From positions 2,929 through 66,928 of the forward strand of contig JAJNBB010000002.1 in NCBI GenBank assembly GCA_021155885.1: DNA of 64,000 bases, written 5' to 3'. The notes under the pieces are model-generated. The model was not told the DNA's origin and searched no databases. It worked only from the letters and a program-made list of their open reading frames with translations. Below are positions 1,569 to 61,882 of the stretch, piece by piece. Position 1 is the stretch's first letter. Each line of letters begins with the position of its first letter. The position numbers and the translations under genes were made by a program. Source of the DNA: Fibrobacteria bacterium. Lineage in GTDB: Bacteria; Fibrobacterota; Fibrobacteria; UBA11236.

Positions 1569-4355
1569 CTAGGCGCCTTCGGTCGCGTCATGCGAGGAGA
1601 GGAACCCGTGCAGCTCCTCCTCGTTCATCAGCACCTCGCGCGGCTTGCTGCCGCGCTCGCGGCCCACGACCCCGGCGCGCTCCAGCTGGTCGACCAGCCG
1701 GCCCGAGCGGGCGTAGCCGAGCCCCAGGCGCCGCTGCAGCAGCGACACCGAGGCCTGCTTGAGTTGCACCACGAGTTCGGCCGCCTCGGCGAACTTGCTG
1801 TCGCGTTCCTCGTCCACGGCCTCCGCGGCGGAATCCTCGTCGACGTTGAAGCTTTTCACCTGCGGGAAGTTCACGTTCTGGCCGGCGCATTCCCCCGCGA
1901 TGTCCTCGCACTGCGCGTCGTCGATGAAGCAGCCGTGCAGGCGCACGGGCTCGGGGAACTCGATGGGCCGGTACAGCATGTCGCCGCGGCCCAGCAGCTT
2001 TTCCGCCCCCTGGCGGTCGAGAATGGTGCGCGCGTCGATCTGGCTCGCCACCTGGAACGCGATGCGCGTCGGCAGGTTGGCCTTGATGGTTCCCGTGATC
2101 ACGTTGGTGGAGGGCCGCTGCGTGGCGAGGATGAGGTGGATGCCCACGGCGCGCGCCTTCTGCGCGATGCGCGCGATGTTGGTTTCGACCTCCTTGCCGG
2201 CCACCATCATCAGGTCGGCGAGCTCGTCGATCACGATCAGGATGTAGGGCATCTCCTCCGAGACCGGCAGGCCCGAGTCGGGATCGTCGTCGGTGTAGCG
2301 CGCCTCGAAGCCGTCCCCGAACTCCTCGTTCTGCGTGTAGCGCCCGTCGGCGTTCAGGGTGCCGGCGCGCGCCTTCTCGTTGAAGCCCTTGATGTTGCGC
2401 ACGCCGCTTTTCGCCAGCTTCTCGTAGCGCTCGTCCATCTTGACCGTGGCCCACTTGAGGGCCTGCACCGCCGCCTCGGCCTGGGTGATCACGGGCCGCA
2501 GCAGGTGCGGGATGGAATCGTAGGGCTTGAGCTCGACCACCTTGGGATCGATCAGGATCATGCGCAGTTCGGCCGGCGTCTTGCTGGCCAGCAGCGAGGC
2601 CATAATGCTGTTGATGCACACCGACTTTCCGGAGCCCGTCTGCCCCGCGATCAGAAGATGCGGCGCGCGCGTCAGGTCGGCGACGTACGGTTCGCCTGAG
2701 ATGGTCTTGCCCAGGCAGACCTTCAGCGTGTCCTTTTCCATCGCGAATTCCGGAGAACCGAGGATCTCCTTGATGTACACGATCTGCGCCTTGCGGTTCG
2801 GCACCTCGACGCCCACCAGGGACTTCCCCGGAATCGGCGCGAGGATGCGGATGCTCTTGGCCCTCAGGGCCAAGGCGAGATCGTCAGACAGGCTGCTGAT
2901 GCGGTTGACCTTTTCGCCGGGGGCCAACTCGACCTCGTAGCGCGTGATCACGGGGCCGGGGTGGATGCCGGTGACCTTGCCGCGCACCTTGAAGTTATTG
3001 AGCTGCGCTTCGAGCAGCGTTTTCTGCTCGAGCAATTCCTCCTCGGTGAATTCCAGGGCCTGCACGGGGGGCGTGGGGAAGATCCGGTCGAGATCGGGGC
3101 GTTTGTATTCGTCGTATTGCACGCGGGCCAAGGCAGGGGCGCCCTCCGGGTCTTCCCCGCCCTCGTCGTCCCAGGGGGTTCCGCGCTCTTTGGTGTTGGC
3201 CAAGGTCTTCGCCTTGGAGGGCCGGGAGGAAGCCTTGCCGGCTTTCTTCGGGGGCGGAGGCGGGATCTCGTCCTCATCGGCCTCATCGAGGGAGTCGACC
3301 CGCGCTTCCTCGTCGGCCTCCTCCTCTTCGGGATCGAGCAATTCCGAAAAGCTGGCCTCGGCGGCCTCGGCGGGCGGGGCCTTCGAAGACCCGGCGGAAC
3401 CTTTCGGATTCCGGCTGAGCATGCCCCCGATTTCCGTGCTGCGGGTTTTCTCTTCCCAGTCGTTCAGCTCGGTGACGCGCTTGCGTTCCAGCGCCAGGTC
3501 GCGCAGCTTGCGGATGGTCAGCGGGTCGAGGTTCTCGAGGTCTCCGCTTTCCAGCAGGGCCTCCAGCTTCGCCTTCTCTTCCTCGGGGCTGTCGTCCTCG
3601 GTGGGGATCAGGCTCTCGTTCGAAACCTTGCCTTCAGCGCGCGACCGGCGGGGCGCTTTCGCCAGCACCGGCATCGCGGGCGAGCCCTTCCAGGGGCCTT
3701 CCTGCGCTTCCGCCGCGCCGTTGCCCGCGCCGCTGCGCCAGCCTTCGGCGAGGGAACGGCCCATCGCCCCGGCCGCGTGCGCGCCGCGCTTCAGCCAGGC
3801 CGACACGCTGATCTGGAAGCCCCACACGGTGAGGAGGAAGATCAGGAGGCTGGTGACGAGATACGGGCCCACCCGGGATTCGGTCCCGAAAACGGGGGTG
3901 AAGATTTGCTGGGCCAAAAAGTTGCCGACCCACCCGCCCGAGCGGGGGTAATCGATCCAGGTGACCTGCGGGTTCAGGTTGCGGATGCTCAGAAGCAGGC
4001 CCACGAAGAAGCCCACGGCGGCGGTGATGCTCATCTGGCGCCACAGCGACACCTTGAACAGCAGTTGAACCCCCAGCAAGACGATGGCGGCGAGGTACAG
4101 GAGCACCGGAAGGCTGCCGAAGGCGTTGTTCAGGAAATTCGCCCACGCCGAACCCACATAGGGCCCGAGCAGGTTGTGCCCCTTTTGGACGCGCTCGGAT
4201 ACGAGCGCGGTAAACGTGACGATCATCCCGGAGAGAAGAATCAGCCCGGGGATTTCCGGGTGCGCGCCCGAAGACTCTTCTTCCTCTTCCGCCGCGCGGC
4301 CGCGGCCTTTGGCAGCCGAGGAGGGGCGGGCGGATTTCTTGTCCGCCTTCGCCAT
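1569..4355 (-). CDS. ftsK: DNA translocase FtsK/SpoIIIE.
   Basis: N-terminal multi-TM region, acidic/proline linker, Walker A GQTGSGKS motor domain, and a C-terminal gamma winged-helix (LLQRRLGLGYARSGRLVDQLE). The ORF extends to a TTG at 4409; the ATG at 4355 (MAKADKK) is the likelier start. Confidence 0.9.
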   Translation of the reverse strand: MAKADKKSARPSSAAKGRGRAAEEEEESSGAHPEIPGLILLSGMIVTFTALVSERVQKGHNLLGPYVGSAWANFLNNAFGSLPVLLYLAAIVLLGVQLLFKVSLWRQMSITAAVGFFVGLLLSIRNLNPQVTWIDYPRSGGWVGNFLAQQIFTPVFGTESRVGPYLVTSLLIFLLTVWGFQISVSAWLKRGAHAAGAMGRSLAEGWRSGAGNGAAEAQEGPWKGSPAMPVLAKAPRRSRAEGKVSNESLIPTEDDSPEEEKAKLEALLESGDLENLDPLTIRKLRDLALERKRVTELNDWEEKTRSTEIGGMLSRNPKGSAGSSKAPPAEAAEASFSELLDPEEEEADEEARVDSLDEADEDEIPPPPPKKAGKASSRPSKAKTLANTKERGTPWDDEGGEDPEGAPALARVQYDEYKRPDLDRIFPTPPVQALEFTEEELLEQKTLLEAQLNNFKVRGKVTGIHPGPVITRYEVELAPGEKVNRISSLSDDLALALRAKSIRILAPIPGKSLVGVEVPNRKAQIVYIKEILGSPEFAMEKDTLKVCLGKTISGEPYVADLTRAPHLLIAGQTGSGKSVCINSIMASLLASKTPAELRMILIDPKVVELKPYDSIPHLLRPVITQAEAAVQALKWATVKMDERYEKLAKSGVRNIKGFNEKARAGTLNADGRYTQNEEFGDGFEARYTDDDPDSGLPVSEEMPYILIVIDELADLMMVAGKEVETNIARIAQKARAVGIHLILATQRPSTNVITGTIKANLPTRIAFQVASQIDARTILDRQGAEKLLGRGDMLYRPIEFPEPVRLHGCFIDDAQCEDIAGECAGQNVNFPQVKSFNVDEDSAAEAVDEERDSKFAEAAELVVQLKQASVSLLQRRLGLGYARSGRLVDQLERAGVVGRERGSKPREVLMNEEELHGFLSSHDATEGA

Positions 4356-32825: not shown

Positions 32826-33752
32826 CTATGCGGCCAACAATTGCTTTTTGAACTCCCGCGGCGAGACGCCCTGGATACGCTTGAACGCCTTGGAGAACAC
32901 GAACGGGTCGCCGTAGCCCACGCGCTCCGCGATCGCGTCGAGATTGTCGTCGGTGGCGCGGAGTAAGTCCATCGCGCGCTGGATGCGGAGGCGGGCCAGG
33001 TAATGCCCCGGCGTGTCCGACGCAAGCTTCTTGAAGCGCTGCGCGAACGCCGCGCGCGAAAGCCCCGCCCGTTCGGCCAGCTCCTCCAGGTTCCAGTCCC
33101 GCTCCGGGTGGGCGTGCATCGCCTCGATCGCCCGGTGCAGGTGCGGGTCCCGCAGCGCGCGGCTCCAGCGGCCTTCGCCGGCCCCTTCGCGGTTCACCCC
33201 TTCCCTCTCCAGCCAGTTCCGCAGGATGTAATGGAACATCACGTCAAGCAGGGCCTTCACCACCGCCTCCGAGCCTTCCCCGCCCTGAGCCAGCTCCGCG
33301 GACAACAGTTGCTGCGCGACGTTCAAAGGGCTGTGCGCGGGGATTTCGTTGGACCGGATCACGATCATCTCCGGGAGCTCGGCGAACAAGGGATGGATGG
33401 GCTCCGTCTGGAATTGATAGAGGCCGCAGGTGACCACCGCGAGCGGTGGGACGTCAGTATCCTCGGGCACCGGGAAGGGACCGGCGCGTAGCGCGGTCGG
33501 GGCCTCGGTGACCCTATCCGTGGATACTACGTGGTCGAAGCCGCGGCGGATCAGCACGACATCGCCGCGCTCCAGGCGCAGCGGCGCGTCGAAGCGCGGC
33601 GCGCGGATGTAGGCCTCGCCGTACGTGACGATGTGGAAGCCCATGCTTTGGTTGCACGGCAGTTTCATCGCCCAGGGAGAATGGAAGGCGTGACTGACCA
33701 ATAGGGATTTGCGCAGGCCCGCGGAATTCAGGATGTCGGTCAGCACGTCCAT
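32826..33752 (-). CDS. AraC-family transcriptional regulator (cupin-like N-domain plus HTH_AraC).
   Basis: C-terminal RAGLSRAAFAQRFKKLASDTPGHYLARLRIQRAMDLL...IAERVGYGDPFVFSKAFKRIQGVSPREF is a classic AraC HTH pair. Confidence 0.88.
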   Translation of the reverse strand: MDVLTDILNSAGLRKSLLVSHAFHSPWAMKLPCNQSMGFHIVTYGEAYIRAPRFDAPLRLERGDVVLIRRGFDHVVSTDRVTEAPTALRAGPFPVPEDTDVPPLAVVTCGLYQFQTEPIHPLFAELPEMIVIRSNEIPAHSPLNVAQQLLSAELAQGGEGSEAVVKALLDVMFHYILRNWLEREGVNREGAGEGRWSRALRDPHLHRAIEAMHAHPERDWNLEELAERAGLSRAAFAQRFKKLASDTPGHYLARLRIQRAMDLLRATDDNLDAIAERVGYGDPFVFSKAFKRIQGVSPREFKKQLLAA

Positions 33753-33882
33753 GGGTTAAAAATACGCTTTGTTTAAAAATCCCGCTATAAATATTTAAAG
33801 ACATGTTTAAAGGACATAAAACCATGTTTAATCCACATAATTCCTCATAAATTACCTCCATCACTTCAAACAGGAGGCCATC
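33753..33882. promoter_or_regulatory. AT-rich divergent promoter region between the AraC-family gene and the NmrA-like gene, with direct repeats CATGTTTAA.
   Basis: GC drops to about 30 % in an otherwise roughly 68 % GC window. CATGTTTAA occurs twice, 22 nt apart, plus a TTGTTTAAAAA variant. SD AGGAGG precedes the NmrA ATG. Confidence 0.55.
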
Positions 33883-37145: not shown

Positions 37146-37285
37146 AAAGGCCTCCTGCGTTGATCCGGGGAAAATAGAACTTGTAAAAAGGCTTGTCTGG
37201 AACCTCGGGGGGTTTTTACCTTGTTCCGCTCCCCCCAGCGGTCCGCGCTTGATACCAGGACGGCCGCCCAACCTTCGGAGTTTTT

Positions 37286-38005
37286 ATGAAATCGTTGAAA
37301 TTGGCCCTCGCCCTCGGAACGGCCGGACTCCTTCTGGCCGGTTGCAATAAAGACGGCGGCACCGACCTCAAGACCCCGATGGAAAAGGCCAGCTATATCA
37401 TCGGCCAGAACATCGGCAACAGCTTCAAGCAGCAGGGCCTCGACGCCGGCGCGGTGGATCTGGACAAGCTCAAGGCGGGCATCACGGACGCCTTGAACGG
37501 CGTGAAGCCGACGATGGACGAGAAGGAAATCCAGGAAATCATGATGACGTTCCAGCAGAACCTCATGAAGCGCGCCGACTCCCTGCGCACCCTGAAGGCG
37601 ACCGAGAACTTCAAGGCCGGCCAGGAATACCTCGCGAAGAACGCGAAGGAATCCGGCGTGGTCGTGCTTCCCAGCGGCCTGCAGTACAAGGTCCTGACCA
37701 AGGGCACGGGCCCGGTCCCCGGAGCGAACAGCACCGTCACCGTCCACTATGTCGGCACCCTCACCGACGGCACCGAGTTCGATAGCTCCCGCAAGCGCGG
37801 CGAGCCCGCGACCTTCCCGGTCACCGGCGTGATCGCCGGCTGGACCGAGGCGCTGCAGCTCATGCCCGTGGGCTCGAAGTGGAAGCTCGTCATCCCGTCC
37901 TCGCTCGCCTACGGCGAACAGGGCAGCGGCCCGGTCATCGGCCCCAACGCCGTGCTGATCTTCGAGGTCGAGCTCCTGTCGACCGCGGACGCGCAGCCGG
38001 AGTAA
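37286..38005 (+). CDS. fkpA: FKBP-type peptidyl-prolyl cis-trans isomerase (FkpA-like lipoprotein).
   Basis: Lipobox LLLAGC, N-terminal helical dimerisation domain, and a C-terminal FKBP domain (VTVHYVGTLTDGTEFDSS...LIFEVELL). Confidence 0.9.
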   Translation: MKSLKLALALGTAGLLLAGCNKDGGTDLKTPMEKASYIIGQNIGNSFKQQGLDAGAVDLDKLKAGITDALNGVKPTMDEKEIQEIMMTFQQNLMKRADSLRTLKATENFKAGQEYLAKNAKESGVVVLPSGLQYKVLTKGTGPVPGANSTVTVHYVGTLTDGTEFDSSRKRGEPATFPVTGVIAGWTEALQLMPVGSKWKLVIPSSLAYGEQGSGPVIGPNAVLIFEVELLSTADAQPE

Positions 38006-38037
38006 GGAAAATGTCCGGGGGGCCCCGCCCTCCTTCA

Positions 38038-38070
38038 CAAAAAAAGCCCGCGGCAACGCGGGCTTTTTTC
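38038..38070 (+). terminator. Rho-independent terminator AAAAAAAGCCCGCG-GCAAC-CGCGGGCTTTTTT after fkpA.
   Basis: Perfect 7-bp GC stem, A-run before it and T6 after it. Confidence 0.85.
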
Positions 38071-38108
38071 GTGGGCCGATTTCGAGCGGGTCGGGCTCGG
38101 GCGGGAAA

Positions 38109-38568
38109 GGACTTAGGACTTAGGGCTTAGGTGGCATAGGTTTTGATATGAGTCCTTGACCTTTGGAGGCCAACCATGCGAAATTATCGTGCGCTCATGA
38201 TCTGGAAAAAATCTCACGAATTCTCTCTGGAAATTTATCGGCTGACACATGAATTTCCACGAAGGGAAATTTATGGCTTGACAAGTCAAATCAGACGCGC
38301 CAGCGCCTCTGTTCCGACCAATATTGCGGAGGGATGCGGACGAAACGGAAACCCTGAATTCATCCACTTTCTTCAAATTGCGCTGGGATCAGCCAATGAA
38401 GTCGATTACCAGATCCTGCTATCCAAAGATCTGGGATACCTACCGCAAGCCGACTATGAGCGACTCTGTGAAAGTTCTAGTGAACTTCGGCGGATGCTTG
38501 CCACCTTTATTCGGAACGCACGTACCCTACCGGCACATAGGCCGTACCTAAGCCCTAAGTCCTAAGCC
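38109..38568. mobile_element. Low-GC cassette bounded by perfect inverted repeats CTTAGGACTTAGGGCTTAGGT / ACCTAAGCCCTAAGTCCTAAG, carrying a four-helix-bundle (IVS-type) gene.
   Basis: Inverted repeats at 38112-38132 and 38546-38566. The interior is about 45-50 % GC versus about 68 % around it. No transposase is present. Confidence 0.4.
38176..38565 (+). CDS. Four-helix-bundle protein (23S rRNA intervening-sequence protein family, TIGR02436).
   Basis: 129 aa. WKKSHEFSLEIYRLT...LTSQIRRASASVPTNIAEG...FLQIALGSANEVDYQILLSKDLGYL is diagnostic for this family. Confidence 0.85.
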   Translation: MRNYRALMIWKKSHEFSLEIYRLTHEFPRREIYGLTSQIRRASASVPTNIAEGCGRNGNPEFIHFLQIALGSANEVDYQILLSKDLGYLPQADYERLCESSSELRRMLATFIRNARTLPAHRPYLSPKS

Positions 38569-39729
38569 CTTCATCAAACTCGGTGCCAGCACGGATGAGT
38601 ACTTCTTCCGGATCCACGCCTCGTCCGGCTTGTCCTTGCCCCCCTGCAGCAGGCGCAGGTCGGCGTCGAGGGCATAGAGGTAGGGGTACCACTCCAGCTT
38701 GAGAGGGGACTTCCAGTCCCAGATCAGGGGCTTGAGCGTCGCCCGATGGGCCTTGAGCTTGGCGGGCGTCAGATCCTTGGGGGCGAGACGCACGAAGGGC
38801 GATGCGATCAGCCCCGCGATCTTCTGAAACTCCGCGGGGACATCCCAGGCCTTCAAAGCCTTCTTCCACGCAGTCGCGGGCGATTCGCCGCGCAAAAAAC
38901 CGCCGAGCAGGTCCAGGTAGAACAGGTCGGTATGGTACAGACCCGTGGGATTGATCAGCATGCCCCGCGTCGTCTTTAGCAGGGCCTTGGACCGGCCCGC
39001 GAAGGGGCCGAGGAAGATCTTGCCGGGGCAATAGTCGTTGGCGTAGAGATTGTCCCAGATCACGGGGGCGGCGCCGGCGCGGCGGGTCACGGCTTTCATA
39101 TCGGCGGCGGAATAATCCGGCGATACGATGGCGCGGCCGGTCCACATCACTTCGATACCGGGAACGATGAATGGCTTCAGGTCGCGCAGGTAGGCGCTCT
39201 TTTCGATTCCCTCGGGCGCGAAAAAGTCGCTGTACACCGTGGGGCAAAACCACAGGCGGCGAATCCCCTGCTTTTGCAAGCGCGGCCACAGCTTTTGCAG
39301 CATCAACCCGTGCGCCTCGCCCAGGGAGCGAAAGAAGGGGCGGTCCGCCGCGGGAAGTTCCACGGGGATGTCGTCCATCAGCAGGGCGGCCTCTTCGCAG
39401 CCCAGCTCCGTGAGCGAACGCAACTTGCGGACCAGCGCCTCGAAGTCCCCGGGCTTGCGGTAGCGGTAGCTCAGGCCGGGCGCGAGCCCCGGCACGACGT
39501 GCACGCCCAGTTTTTTGGACGTGGCGACGAAGGCCTTGAAGTCTCCCCTCCAGGCGGCGGGGTAAGGCGCACGCCATTCCTTGCGGTGGTAGAGATCTTC
39601 CTTGGGGGCATAGAGATAATGCCCGGCGCCGATTTCCTGCAGCTTGCGGACGAGGCCCAGCCGCTCGGAAAACGTGAGCAGCCGGCCGTAGTAGCCTTCG
39701 ATATAGCCGGAGAGGAAGGGACGGGTCAT
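38548..39729 (-). CDS. GH84-family beta-N-acetylglucosaminidase (O-GlcNAcase/NagJ-like) catalytic domain protein.
   Basis: YIEGYYGRLLTF, LLMDDIP and VIWDNLYANDY motifs of the GH84 TIM barrel. Its stop codon lies inside the right inverted repeat of the cassette. Confidence 0.65.
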   Translation of the reverse strand: MTRPFLSGYIEGYYGRLLTFSERLGLVRKLQEIGAGHYLYAPKEDLYHRKEWRAPYPAAWRGDFKAFVATSKKLGVHVVPGLAPGLSYRYRKPGDFEALVRKLRSLTELGCEEAALLMDDIPVELPAADRPFFRSLGEAHGLMLQKLWPRLQKQGIRRLWFCPTVYSDFFAPEGIEKSAYLRDLKPFIVPGIEVMWTGRAIVSPDYSAADMKAVTRRAGAAPVIWDNLYANDYCPGKIFLGPFAGRSKALLKTTRGMLINPTGLYHTDLFYLDLLGGFLRGESPATAWKKALKAWDVPAEFQKIAGLIASPFVRLAPKDLTPAKLKAHRATLKPLIWDWKSPLKLEWYPYLYALDADLRLLQGGKDKPDEAWIRKKYSSVLAPSLMKGLGLRA

Positions 39730-41996: not shown

Positions 41997-43229
41997 GTGA
42001 ATTCCGCACCGCGCACCGGGCTCCAAACCGAAGGCAAATCCGCCCGTTCCCGGGTCCTGGGAACGGTCCTGGGGATTTTGGGGACGGGATTCGGAAGCGC
42101 CTTCGCCCTCGAGCAGACCTCCGGCGTCAACCTGACCGCCAGCGAAGGCTTCGGCGCGCGCCAGCAGGGCATGGCCGTGCAGCGCGCGGGCTTCGCGCAG
42201 GGCGCCGACGCGGTCGTCAACGCCCCCGCCTCAATGAACGACGTCAACGACTTCACGTTCTCCACCGGACACGCCGAACAGTTCGGGATGGCGCGTTTCG
42301 ACAACTTCGCCCTGCTCATCCCCTGGCACGCGCGGAGCACCTTGGGCCTCGCGGTCGCGCGGTACTCCGTCACCGGCATCGAGCAGTACGGCTCGGATTT
42401 CGATCCGGCCACCGAATCCGATCCCGACGGCCTCTTCGACGCCGCCGACTGGATGGTCTCCGGGGCCTTCGCCCGCCGCTTCGGGGCATTCGACGTCGGC
42501 GGCGCGGTGCATTTGCTGCGCCGGCAACTGGACCAAAGCGGGCTCGGCATGCGCGGCGACCTGATGGGCCAGTATACCTACGACCGCCGCTACCGCGCCG
42601 GCGCCTTTATCCGCGGGGCGCTGCCTTCCACCGCCGCGTGGGAGGAAGGCCTCACCGAGTATGAGGCGCCCGAAGCGTCGCTGTTCGTCTCGGGCCTCTG
42701 GCCCCTCCCCTACTTTTACGGGTCGCTGCAGGCCGGGCTCGAAACCCCCGGCATCTTTCAATACGGAGCCCGCTCCAGCTCGCGGCTCGAGGGCGAACGC
42801 GGCATCACCGATCCCGCGTCGGTGATCCGAACCTCGCGGGTCGGCGCGGAATTCAACTTCGACTTCGGCCTGAGTCTGCGCGCCGGGTTCGACGAGCTCG
42901 CCCCCTCCGCCTGGGGTTCTTCGGCGCGCCTGGGCATGGGCTACCACTGGCGGAACATCCTGGGCATCGACTACGCTTTCTCGGCCCACCCCTACCTCGA
43001 CCAAAGTCATCGCATCTCCCTGCGCTTCACCCCCTCGTTCCCCAAGTTCGAGGGCCGCAATTTCCGGCCGCGCGAGCCGCAACGCAATCGGGACCGCATT
43101 CCCCGGCCCGATTATCGCCCCACCTATCCCTCGCCCTATACCCCGGGCAAGCCCTTGCCCGATCCGGCCCCCGAGGAACTGGAAGAGGAAGAGCTGGAAG
43201 AAGGGGAGATTCAAGAGATCGTGGAGTAG
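41997..43229 (+). CDS. Hypothetical outer-membrane beta-barrel-like protein (possibly PorQ/PorV-type) with an acidic C-terminal tail.
   Basis: Signal-like N-terminus, alternating-hydrophobicity strands, aromatic-rich segments, and a C-terminal Pro/Arg-rich then EELEEEELEEGE tail. Family assignment is uncertain. Confidence 0.45.
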   Translation: MNSAPRTGLQTEGKSARSRVLGTVLGILGTGFGSAFALEQTSGVNLTASEGFGARQQGMAVQRAGFAQGADAVVNAPASMNDVNDFTFSTGHAEQFGMARFDNFALLIPWHARSTLGLAVARYSVTGIEQYGSDFDPATESDPDGLFDAADWMVSGAFARRFGAFDVGGAVHLLRRQLDQSGLGMRGDLMGQYTYDRRYRAGAFIRGALPSTAAWEEGLTEYEAPEASLFVSGLWPLPYFYGSLQAGLETPGIFQYGARSSSRLEGERGITDPASVIRTSRVGAEFNFDFGLSLRAGFDELAPSAWGSSARLGMGYHWRNILGIDYAFSAHPYLDQSHRISLRFTPSFPKFEGRNFRPREPQRNRDRIPRPDYRPTYPSPYTPGKPLPDPAPEELEEEELEEGEIQEIVE

Positions 43230-43354
43230 GCAGGGACAGTTGAGAGTTGACGGTTGACAGGGAAGGTAGTCCGTAGGCAAAACTACCGGCCTTGCGGGTC
43301 TATTGACCCGTCCTGTCAACTGTCCACTGTCAACCGTCAACTATCTTTCCTCCC

Positions 43355-61314: not shown

Positions 61315-61767
61315 ATGGATCCAATCGCACTTTTGAAGGCCGATCACAGGAAGGTCGAGGAACTGTTCAAGAAGCTGGAGGATACCACGGAGCGCGCCGT
61401 GAAGACGCGCACCGAGCTGTTCGAAAAGCTGAGGATGGAATTGACCGTCCATGCCCTCGCCGAGGAAGCGGTGCTGTATCCCGAAAACAAGGAGATCCCG
61501 TCAACGCGCGAACTCGGCTTCGAGGCCGTGGAAGAGCACCACGTCGTGAAAATCCTGCTGGACGAGCTTTCCGAGCTTTCCCCCGATACCGAGGAATGGA
61601 CGGCCAAGCTTTCGGTGCTGAAGGAAAACGTCCAGCATCACGTCAAGGAAGAAGAGGGGGAGATCTTCCCCAAGACGAAGAAGGCCCTGTCGGCGGAGGA
61701 GCTCGACGAAATGGGCGCCCGCCTTTTCGAGGAAAAGGAAAAGCTGCTGGGGCATATGCCGGCATAG
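61315..61767 (+). CDS. Hemerythrin HHE cation-binding domain protein.
   Basis: Paired H...E / HH...E motifs (HRKVEELF, EEHHVVK, QHHVKEEE). 150 aa. Confidence 0.8.
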   Translation: MDPIALLKADHRKVEELFKKLEDTTERAVKTRTELFEKLRMELTVHALAEEAVLYPENKEIPSTRELGFEAVEEHHVVKILLDELSELSPDTEEWTAKLSVLKENVQHHVKEEEGEIFPKTKKALSAEELDEMGARLFEEKEKLLGHMPA

Positions 61768-61882
61768 CTACCAGCGTACAGCGGACAGCGTACAGCCGGA
61801 AAACGGGGGATATTCCGACCTTCCCCCTCTTTTCCAGCTGTACGCTGCCCGCTGTCGCTGTACGCTGTCCGCTGTTCGCTTC
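61768..61882. repeat. Copy 3 of the palindromic intergenic repeat family (CCAGCGTACAGCGGACAGCGTACAGC ... AGCTGTACGCTGCCCGCTGTCGCTGTACGCTGTCCGCTGTTCGCT) enclosing a terminator-like hairpin.
   Basis: Arms at 61771-61796 and 61836-61880. Internal GGGGGA..TCCCCC stem followed by TCTTTT. It starts immediately after the hemerythrin stop. Confidence 0.7.

Follow-up and report, generated by a model that had tools for sequence, protein, structure and literature searches.

A 64,000-nucleotide stretch of DNA from a member of the Fibrobacteria (GenBank assembly GCA_021155885.1, contig JAJNBB010000002.1, positions 2,929–66,928; hereafter the window) contains a 465-bp inserted unit at 38107–38571, in which one gene for a four-helix-bundle protein lies between two inverted arrays of heptanucleotides. 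The unit is probably a cassette of the intervening sequence (IVS) type, made up of the gene and its two heptamer arrays, that was inserted at the junction of two convergent host genes. By sequence and fold, the encoded protein is a homologue of XCC0516, of the S23p proteins of ribosomal RNA (rRNA) IVSs and, more remotely, of Avd, a protein of diversity-generating retroelements (DGRs). A survey of related loci shows that inverted arrays of period 7 flank most of the sampled genes of this family.

The sequence-only reading of this stretch had described a gene bounded by perfect 21-bp inverted repeats, and the repeats are as described. The sequence CTTAGGACTTAGGGCTTAGGT occurs exactly at 38112–38132 on the + strand and at 38546–38566 on the − strand, forming a 21-nt perfect inverted repeat. 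There is no further copy in the window, even with three mismatches allowed, and the proposed search for repeat copies, carried out on the window only, thus returned just the two arms. None of 100 dinucleotide-preserving shuffles produced a match (0/100), and three independent metagenome assemblies agree exactly on the cassette; together these rule out chance or an assembly artefact as the origin of the repeat. With a single mismatch, the arms extend to 26 nt (38107–38132 on the + strand and its reverse complement, 38546–38571, on the − strand; 96% complementarity). What had been overlooked is the internal make-up of the arms. Each consists of three tandem heptamers, CTTAGGA CTTAGGG CTTAGGT, or (CTTAGGN)3, which in the left arm follow an AAGGA. 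In each of the three frames, the left arm has a TAG on the + strand and a TAA on the − strand.

The limits of the cassette (38107–38571, +) are defined by breaks in homology and by base composition (GC content 0.48 as against 0.65). Between the arms, a spacer begins with the motif TGGCATAGGTTTTGAT (38132–38147, +; GGCAY-N5-TTGAT), whose columns are invariant in an alignment with the cassettes L004 and L005 (handles of the form L004 denote loci from other genomes). A ribosome-binding site, GGAGG (38165–38169, +), is located 6 nt 5' of the ATG. The open reading frame (ORF) follows at 38176–38565 (+), and its last residues and stop (YLSPKS*) come from the right arm. The same arm, read on the other strand, supplies the last six codons and the stop of the convergent host gene, which encodes a GH84 enzyme (NAGidase; 38548–39729, −; assigned by profile match and by alignment to orthologues). 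The overlap of the right repeat with the GH84 stop codon, which had been seen at the outset, is confirmed, and the tail KGLGLRA* of GH84 comes from the right arm.

On the left, the cassette begins 33 nt downstream of a bidirectional terminator hairpin (38036–38073) that follows fkpA. This hairpin is kept in all relatives and represents the original content of the intergenic space. Orthologous fkpA–GH84 junctions were found in four relatives by way of their GH84 homologues (L127/L128, L129/L130, L131, and L132), and none of the four has heptamer arrays at this place. In L131 and L132 (GH84 identity 81% and 71%), the junction is 66 and 104 nt in length, respectively, and consists of the fkpA stop, the bidirectional terminator, and the GH84 stop. 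In L129/L130 (82%), it is a noncoding spacer of 283 nt. In the closest relative, L127/L128 (86%), it holds a different ORF of 128 amino acids (L127 4164–4550, −) without heptamer arms and without a match to Pfam or any other family. The element CGTTCGCCGG is common to the 283-nt spacer of L129/L130 and to the junction content of L127. The fkpA–GH84 junction is a hotspot for small insertions.

Homology to L127 and L129 ends just past ...GGGCGGG(A), near 38106, and homology to the GH84 orthologues resumes at ~38572, such that the right junction coincides with the native position of the GH84 stop. The GH84 proteins of relatives end in ...YSAVIAPKLLS*, while that of the window reads ...YSSVLAPSLMK followed by GLGLRA*, with the last six codons and the stop encoded by the array. 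Because the junctions of relatives are either empty or occupied by other small content, the unit as a whole is an insertion. These comparisons of sequence show that it entered, arms included, between the fkpA terminator and the last GH84 codon in this Fibrobacteria lineage. An inspection of this junction in relatives had been proposed as a check; the site proved to be empty in L131 and L132 and to hold something else in L127 and L129.

Cassettes of the same type occur at a second site. The two closest informative homologues of the protein, P0003 (61% identity) and P0005 (72% over 80% of the length), are encoded in cassettes L004 and L005, whose hosts are also Fibrobacteria. These cassettes lie at a convergent junction between MqnC, a radical-SAM gene of the futalosine pathway, and CoaE, a site not present in the window. 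Their arms, (GGACTTA)n and (TAAGTCC)n, are built from the same heptamer as in the window, and homology to the window spans the unit from arm to arm and ends there. As for GH84, the tail of MqnC (...KYGEKDLGLR*) is encoded by the array, and CoaE likewise stops inside the right array. In L215 and L217, in which MqnC is 87% and 85% identical, the junction is empty and free of arrays, and the two stop codons abut or overlap. In L214 (88%), an unrelated hydrophobic ORF of 125 amino acids (3164–3541, −) occupies the junction, again without arrays. Since relatives have empty junctions or other content at both sites, the cassette has entered at least two convergent-gene junctions within the phylum, in each case flush with the ends of the genes. 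The empty junction of L217 reads GGGGTAGGGCTTAGTC, in which the two stop codons themselves make up one heptamer-like unit. In L005, codon 10 of the four-helix-bundle ORF (1444–1854) is an in-frame TAG where L004 has TGG. The ORF is otherwise intact, with its arms kept, and represents either a sequence variant or a pseudogene of very recent origin.

The assignment of the 129-amino acid product to the four-helix-bundle (S23p/Avd-like) family, made originally from the letters alone, is borne out by profile and structural comparison. The ORF matches PF05635 with 138.2 bits (E = 1.4e-40; cutoff 33.8) and TIGR02436 with 139.3 bits (E = 5e-41; cutoff 24), and phmmer identified XCC0516 (PDB 2GSC) as a homologue (E = 7e-22). 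In an AlphaFold2 (AF2) model with a pLDDT of 89, residues 1–116 form the bundle, with helices at 8–24, 32–54, 59–85, and 91–116, and the tail (117–129) is disordered. A Foldseek comparison placed the model closest to 2GSC (TM score 0.85/0.93 with an rmsd of 1.6; 0.85–0.95 over all superpositions) and to BT_0352 (2RLD; TM 0.74/0.88), and more remotely to bAvd (4DWL/8UB7; TM about 0.7–0.87). The motif R-x3-S-x3-N-x2-E-G, which has been described for this family (PMC3936711), is present as R41, S45, N49, E52, and G53, all (near-)invariant in the protein alignment. From the five chains in 2GSC and in 2RLD, we infer that the protein would form a homopentameric toroid. The family protein is under purifying selection (dN/dS 0.03–0.23, more than 25 pairs). 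No other four-helix-bundle gene occurs in the window.

The interior of the unit is lower in GC than its surroundings, as noted from the start (0.45–0.52 as against 0.65 for the window), and the GC3 of the gene is 0.47 as compared to 0.84–0.91 for its neighbors. The sequence-only reading had offered a recently mobilized element as one possibility, which the data do not bear out. The nearest relative of the cassette has a protein identity of just 61%, related cassettes are mostly vertically inherited, and low GC is a family-wide property. The family gene is poorer in GC than the DNA around it in 52 of 57 loci, with a mean difference of −7 points (p = 3e-10), and the offset is extreme in the window (−17), L004 (−18), and L005 (−16). 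Because the orthologous insertions of L004 and L005, which are ~30% diverged, are equally low, low GC is a lasting trait and not a mark of recent arrival; an argument from composition for recent transfer is ruled out by the 52 family genes and this vertically inherited pair. The one other conspicuous dip in GC within the window (33740–33880) is an unrelated AT-rich divergent promoter region between outward-facing genes.

The link between gene and arrays holds well beyond this locus. We surveyed 80 further family loci from metagenomes, whose proteins are 44–58% identical to that of the window. The best inverted match between upstream and downstream flanks of each locus was far above that of a permuted-pair control, and the arms were visibly degenerate heptamers. 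Within ±250 nt of the 80 family genes there are 107 period-7 arrays (2.44/kb), as compared to 16 elsewhere on the same contigs (0.127/kb), an enrichment of ~19-fold. Periods 5, 6, 9, and 10 are essentially absent from these flanks, and period 8 is rare; L159, L165, and L172 have period-8 arms instead, for example (GTCAGTNN)n. Within ~300 nt, period-7 arrays are found at 68 of 78 testable loci (on both sides in 49, on one side in 19, and on neither in 10). The commonest layout is 5'-(TCAGCNN)n, gene, (NNGCTGA)n-3', and other cores are TCAGT, TTAGC, TGAGC, and TAAGT. Arrays have mostly 3–5 units, end a median of 29 nt 5' of the start codon, and contain or abut the stop codon of the ORF in 69% of family loci. 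No rRNA was detected in 40 family loci (0/40), and a motif check was also negative.

Some loci depart from this layout. Very long arrays of GCTCAAN or GCTCANN (100–185 nt, up to ~26 units) occur in L169 (988–1156 and 1665–1849) and L171 (1869–2034), which indicates strong expansion by slippage. In L150, L178, L188, L204, L206, L207, and L208, a complete short hairpin lies upstream of the gene and an extra right-type array lies downstream, a nested layout that allows alternative pairings.

As for movement, closely related cassettes are mostly syntenic; the TCAGT group, for example, aligns over 3.3 kb at 82–86% identity. Three pairs (L138 and L148, L192 and L196, and the window and L004) have only arms plus gene in common. 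Such alignments show that the cassette has been transferred as arms plus gene, albeit rarely. Cassettes with CTTAGG arrays are found elsewhere in metagenome-assembled genomes (MAGs) of Planctomycetaceae (L030), Dehalococcoidia (L070), and Brevundimonas (L085), as well as in L102.

The CTTAGG heptamer was also followed irrespective of the gene. A survey of (CTTAGGN)3 yielded 119 genomic loci with 22 inverted pairs, of which 21 are ordered CTTAGG...CCTAAG, an order that does not change with the strand read. Seventeen pairs form short, gene-free hairpins whose loops measure 19–75 nt, and one has a 152-nt gap of degenerate heptamers. Where the loop is of gene size, it contains a four-helix-bundle gene in every case (3/3). 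Gene-free short hairpins made of CTTAGGN, CTTGGGN, CTCAGGT, or ATTAGGG are present in L038, L044, L048, L053, L055, L073, L076, L080, L083, L092, L104, L112, and L117. Hosts of such hairpins include Luteitalea and other Acidobacteriota, Tepidisphaerales, Caulobacteraceae, and Brevundimonas, and several of the loops begin with AAAA and end with TTTT.

The arrays of the family are rich in stop codons, with a polarity. Against an expectation from column-permuted arrays, right arrays carry stops in all three sense frames in 49 of 59 cases (~16 expected), and left arrays carry them in all three antisense frames in 40 of 51 cases (13.7 expected), while stops in the entering direction are near expectation. 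Of 110 arrays, 102 have stops in all three frames of one strand or of both (50 expected). The CTTAGGN heptamer has TAG in the inward direction as well as TAA in the outward direction, so that ORFs arriving from the host are closed too. With stops in three frames, the unit can therefore sit flush against the ends of host genes and close incoming ORFs, as it does for GH84 and for MqnC and CoaE. The arrays probably act as three-frame stops facing outward, and in this cassette in both directions, and may have the role of an insulator.

At the level of RNA, folding of 38095–38585 (−168 kcal/mol, z = −4.65) paired the arms in both the minimum free energy (MFE) structure and the centroid. The suggestion of a stem-forming, IVS-like insertion outside rRNA is in accord with this fold: the predicted terminal stem encloses the four-helix-bundle ORF, the neighboring genes are protein coding, and 37200–39200 has no match to rRNA. 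Rfam has no match in the cassette, the only matches being weak terminator-like ones at the fkpA hairpin. In any transcript that spans the unit, the arms would pair as a 21–26-bp stem around the ORF. Such a stem would resemble the layout of 23S rRNA IVSs that is cut by RNase III, and the cassette might accordingly be cut out of the RNA or insulated within it. An rRNA IVS might then be a special case in which a cassette landed in an rRNA helix, and gene-free heptamer hairpins, of which there are two in the window and many across phyla, might belong to the same class of element.

Regarding transcription, an outward-facing TTGACC had been read as a −35-like box. It lies inside the unit (38156–38161), 15 nt before the ATG, and a promoter scan found no sigma-70-like promoter there. 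The spacer motif GGCAY-N5-TTGAT (38132–38147), conserved in all three Fibrobacteria cassettes (window, L004, and L005), resembles a sigma-54 promoter, except for a GA rather than a GC at −12. The pattern TGGCAY-N5-TTGMW has two matches in the window (0.15 expected), at 38132–38147 (+) and at 38573–38588 (−). The latter falls in the coding sequence of GH84, immediately beyond the right arm, and points into the cassette; it is possibly a coincidence.

Several observations weigh against an inserted, stem-forming cassette. The flanks, ...GGGCGGGA| on the left and |CATCAAAC on the right, have no direct repeat in common, which means that a target-site duplication is lacking, and the cassette is not adjoined by a gene for a recombinase, transposase, or reverse transcriptase. 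Movement appears to be rare, as judged from the synteny of close cassettes. The proteins of L030, L070, L085, and L102 are only 24–42% identical to that of the window, and the type of heptamer does not track protein phylogeny. Co-evolution of heptamer and protein fails for CTTAGG, whose proteins have an identity of 0.36 among themselves and of 0.41 to those of other types, and is weak overall (0.61 versus 0.50, inflated by orthologues). If GGCAY-N5-TTGAT is the promoter of the gene, the transcript would lack the 5' arm; only read-through RNA would then form the stem, while the fkpA terminator lies upstream. Lastly, the 446 mismatches between arms show no bias toward changes compatible with G:U pairing (69 in the sense strand, 94 in the antisense strand, and 283 in neither). 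Selection at the RNA level on pairing of the arms was considered and is unsupported by this wobble test (69 versus 94). Judging by these comparisons, what selection seems to maintain is a periodic 5-nt core and not perfect pairing of the RNA, and the perfect 21-nt arms of the window belong to the well-matched end of the family distribution.

The window also contains two hairpins that have heptamer arms and no gene, both identified by a period-7 scan. The first, (GACAGTT)n, a 50-nt loop, and (AACTGTC)n at 43235–43345 (fold −58 kcal/mol, z = −6.5), is directly 3' of the stop of ORF 41997–43229. It is missing from the orthologous spacer of a relative (L219, 6794–6859), and the same unit makes up the array next to the closest homologue of the protein, L006. 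The second, (ACAGCGN)n, a loop, and (NCGCTGT)n at 61770–61880 (fold −66 kcal/mol, z = −9.2), is directly 3' of the stop of ORF 61315–61767 and precedes the next co-directional gene; its loop contains a nested small hairpin. No other CTTAGG array occurs in the window. The sequence-only reading had allowed that the repeats might prove to be common sequences of the repetitive extragenic palindromic (REP) kind, unrelated to the gene. Heptamer hairpins are indeed a recurring type of element in this genome, but the second half of that proposition fails: the exact CTTAGG repeat is unique in the window, and the link between gene and arrays is far from accidental.

Among other explanations, the main one, attractive but tentative, is that the arrays are putative binding sites of the encoded protein, which by homology would be a pentameric, positively charged toroid. 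It is compatible with an inserted cassette and adds a role for the protein. In one variant, the protein would recognize the periodic 5-nt cores of 3–5 units, in RNA or DNA, and autoregulate its own gene in the manner of TRAP, whose ring binds spaced (G/U)AG triplets. In another, it would act in trans on gene-free arrays, as in RAYT/REP systems. Both variants belong to the same tentative proposal. It is the periodic core that is conserved and not the complementarity of the arms; the number of units, the median distance of 29 nt to the start codon, and the 69% of loci with overlap of the stop codon are in keeping with such sites. Purifying selection on the protein and a fold like that of bAvd in the DGR ribonucleoprotein (8UB7, TM about 0.7–0.8) are likewise in favor, as is the presence of gene-free arrays and hairpins in the same genomes. 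XCC0516 has a GGGAATC array beside it, one of 186 in that genome, and the empty hairpin at 43235–43345 has the unit of the L006 array. However, CTTAGG accompanies very different proteins (24–42% identity) and similar proteins accompany different heptamers, contrary to a rule of one protein and one site. Further, the three hairpins of the window have three different cores, and a single four-helix-bundle gene is visible in the 64 kb.

A broader form of this idea, which we consider doubtful, is that the heptanucleotide arrays of bacteria have their dedicated partners in the four-helix-bundle (S23p/Avd-like) proteins. Each gene would reside within a hairpin of its own repeat, and gene-free arrays would be nonautonomous derivatives or RNA or DNA targets. 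Such a set would comprise Xanthomonas GGGAATC, the short tandemly repeated repetitive (STRR) sequences of cyanobacteria, Beggiatoa TAACTGA, and the two hairpins of the window. If true, the system would be REPIN/RAYT-like or TRAP-like, and would explain the excess of heptamers in bacteria as well as the origin of ORF-bearing rRNA IVSs.

It is unlikely that the cassette is instead a nonautonomous transposon of the miniature inverted-repeat transposable element (MITE) type, with the arms as terminal inverted repeats for a transposase encoded elsewhere and the gene as a passenger. The arms are indeed inverted, with the same inward polarity in 21 of 22 CTTAGG pairs; the element is present in some and absent from other close relatives at two sites; and short gene-free derivatives exist. 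Nevertheless, target-site duplication is lacking and no transposase is found nearby. The arms vary in the number of units, and their complementarity is often confined to the core, which is unlike termini defined by a transposase. Gene-sized cargo of CTTAGG arms belongs to one family in three of three cases, and a mere passenger would not be expected to be accompanied by arrays in 87% of family loci. As for copy number, the 64 kb covered by the analysis contain one cassette, and the nearest relative elsewhere has 61% protein identity.

A scenario of the reverse order, in which a REP-like host hairpin (a terminator or a stabilizer of mRNA) was there beforehand and the gene later entered its loop, is quite improbable. 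Gene-free hairpins immediately after stop codons, as at 43235–43345 and 61770–61880 and in many phyla, fit it, as does the position of rRNA IVSs, which are always at the tips of helices. Yet no array exists at fkpA–GH84 in four relatives or at MqnC–CoaE in two, and unrelated loci match over arms and gene together. A DGR remnant, that is, an Avd gene left without reverse transcriptase and template/variable repeats, can be practically dismissed: the bAvd-like fold and a weak hit of NF033474, the model for Avd (E = 1e-4), point that way, but the hit reaches just 22.5 bits against a cutoff of 80, the neighbors are fkpA and GH84 with no reverse transcriptase, and the much closer relatives are free-standing proteins of the XCC0516/BT_0352 type.

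The insertion of an IVS-type cassette thus remains the probable account of the unit, whose novelty as a locus is modest. Within its family, the window copy is ordinary and well preserved, and it amounts to an IVS-like element located outside rRNA. What appears to be undescribed is the general rule that couples four-helix-bundle genes to inverted heptamer arrays. A full-text literature search returned no published statement of the link between this gene family and heptamers, although most subscription journals lie outside its coverage and an earlier description is possible. The family is very large, with thousands of relatives in a single search. To our knowledge it has no known function, even though structures have been available since 2006. 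We likewise know of no explanation for the excess of heptamer repeats in bacteria or for the origin of ORF-bearing rRNA IVSs, a question open since 1993. The locus and the survey join these three puzzles, namely the orphan family, the origin of IVSs, and the heptamer excess. They also offer a rule for annotation, an inverted period-7 array on either side of a gene of ~120 amino acids. The rule makes the function of the family and the origin of IVSs experimentally approachable, as the hosts of XCC0516 (Xanthomonas) and BT_0352 (Bacteroides) are culturable and the structures of both proteins have been solved.

Of the known systems, Avd has the same four-helix-bundle fold, is pentameric (here by homology), and partners nucleic acid in the DGR ribonucleoprotein. 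It differs in sequence (~12% identity, below the cutoff of the model), and the window has neither reverse transcriptase nor template/variable repeats near the gene. REP/REPIN sequences with their RAYT genes are similar in that a lone gene lies between inverted short repeats; in those systems the repeat is also dispersed without the gene as hairpin pairs. RAYTs, however, are HUH Y1 transposases, whereas the only ORF of the cassette belongs to PF05635 and has no known nuclease fold, and REPs are palindromes of 20–40 nt rather than tandem heptamers. In the window, CTTAGG arrays occur only at the gene, and the two other hairpins have other heptamers.

The heptanucleotide repeats described from Xanthomonas (GGGAATC), cyanobacteria (STRR), and Beggiatoaceae (TAACTGA) are also of period 7, intergenic, and degenerate in their units, with frequent convergent stem-loop pairs and variable unit number (PMC4692102, PMC4679880). 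They have been treated as G-quadruplex or regulatory elements, with no link to a gene family (PMC4692102, PMC4679880). In the genome of XCC0516, 186 GGGAATC arrays with 70 convergent pairs were reported, likewise not tied to a gene family by the authors (PMC4692102). Array repeat #15 of that genome (Xcc 622956–622983) overlaps the start region of XCC0516, which passed without comment (PMC4692102, supplementary file 2). The arrays studied here differ in that they enclose a specific gene and have stops that face outward.

Free-standing TIGR02436 genes, such as those for XCC0516 (2GSC) and BT_0352 (2RLD), are alike in sequence, in fold, and in being small solitary genes between unrelated genes; some family copies are wedged between cas genes (PMC3936711). 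The difference is that we found no published mention of inverted heptamer arrays flanking them.

A further close parallel is provided by 23S rRNA IVSs with an S23p ORF, which occur in Leptospira, Coxiella burnetii, Xanthomonas, and Brucella at helices 25 or 45. Unlike these, the window unit lies between protein-coding genes, and none of the 40 surveyed loci has rRNA. Its heptamer is different and provides stops to neighboring ORFs, a property with no counterpart in rRNA. Excision by RNase III has been demonstrated experimentally only for rRNA IVSs (PMC4990558). In Coxiella, the 23S IVS has a 28-bp terminal stem that is cut by this enzyme, and three to four tandem GACAGAT heptamers, varying in number between strains, are located just 5' of the S23p ORF (PMC4990558). 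These heptamers in the region of the 5' arm are similar to the arrays found here, and so is the size of the Coxiella IVS (428–444 nt, as compared to 465 nt; PMC4990558). The two kinds of element have the same protein family and the same arrangement, in which inverted repeats at the ends, able to pair over more than 20 bp, surround the ORF as a stem.

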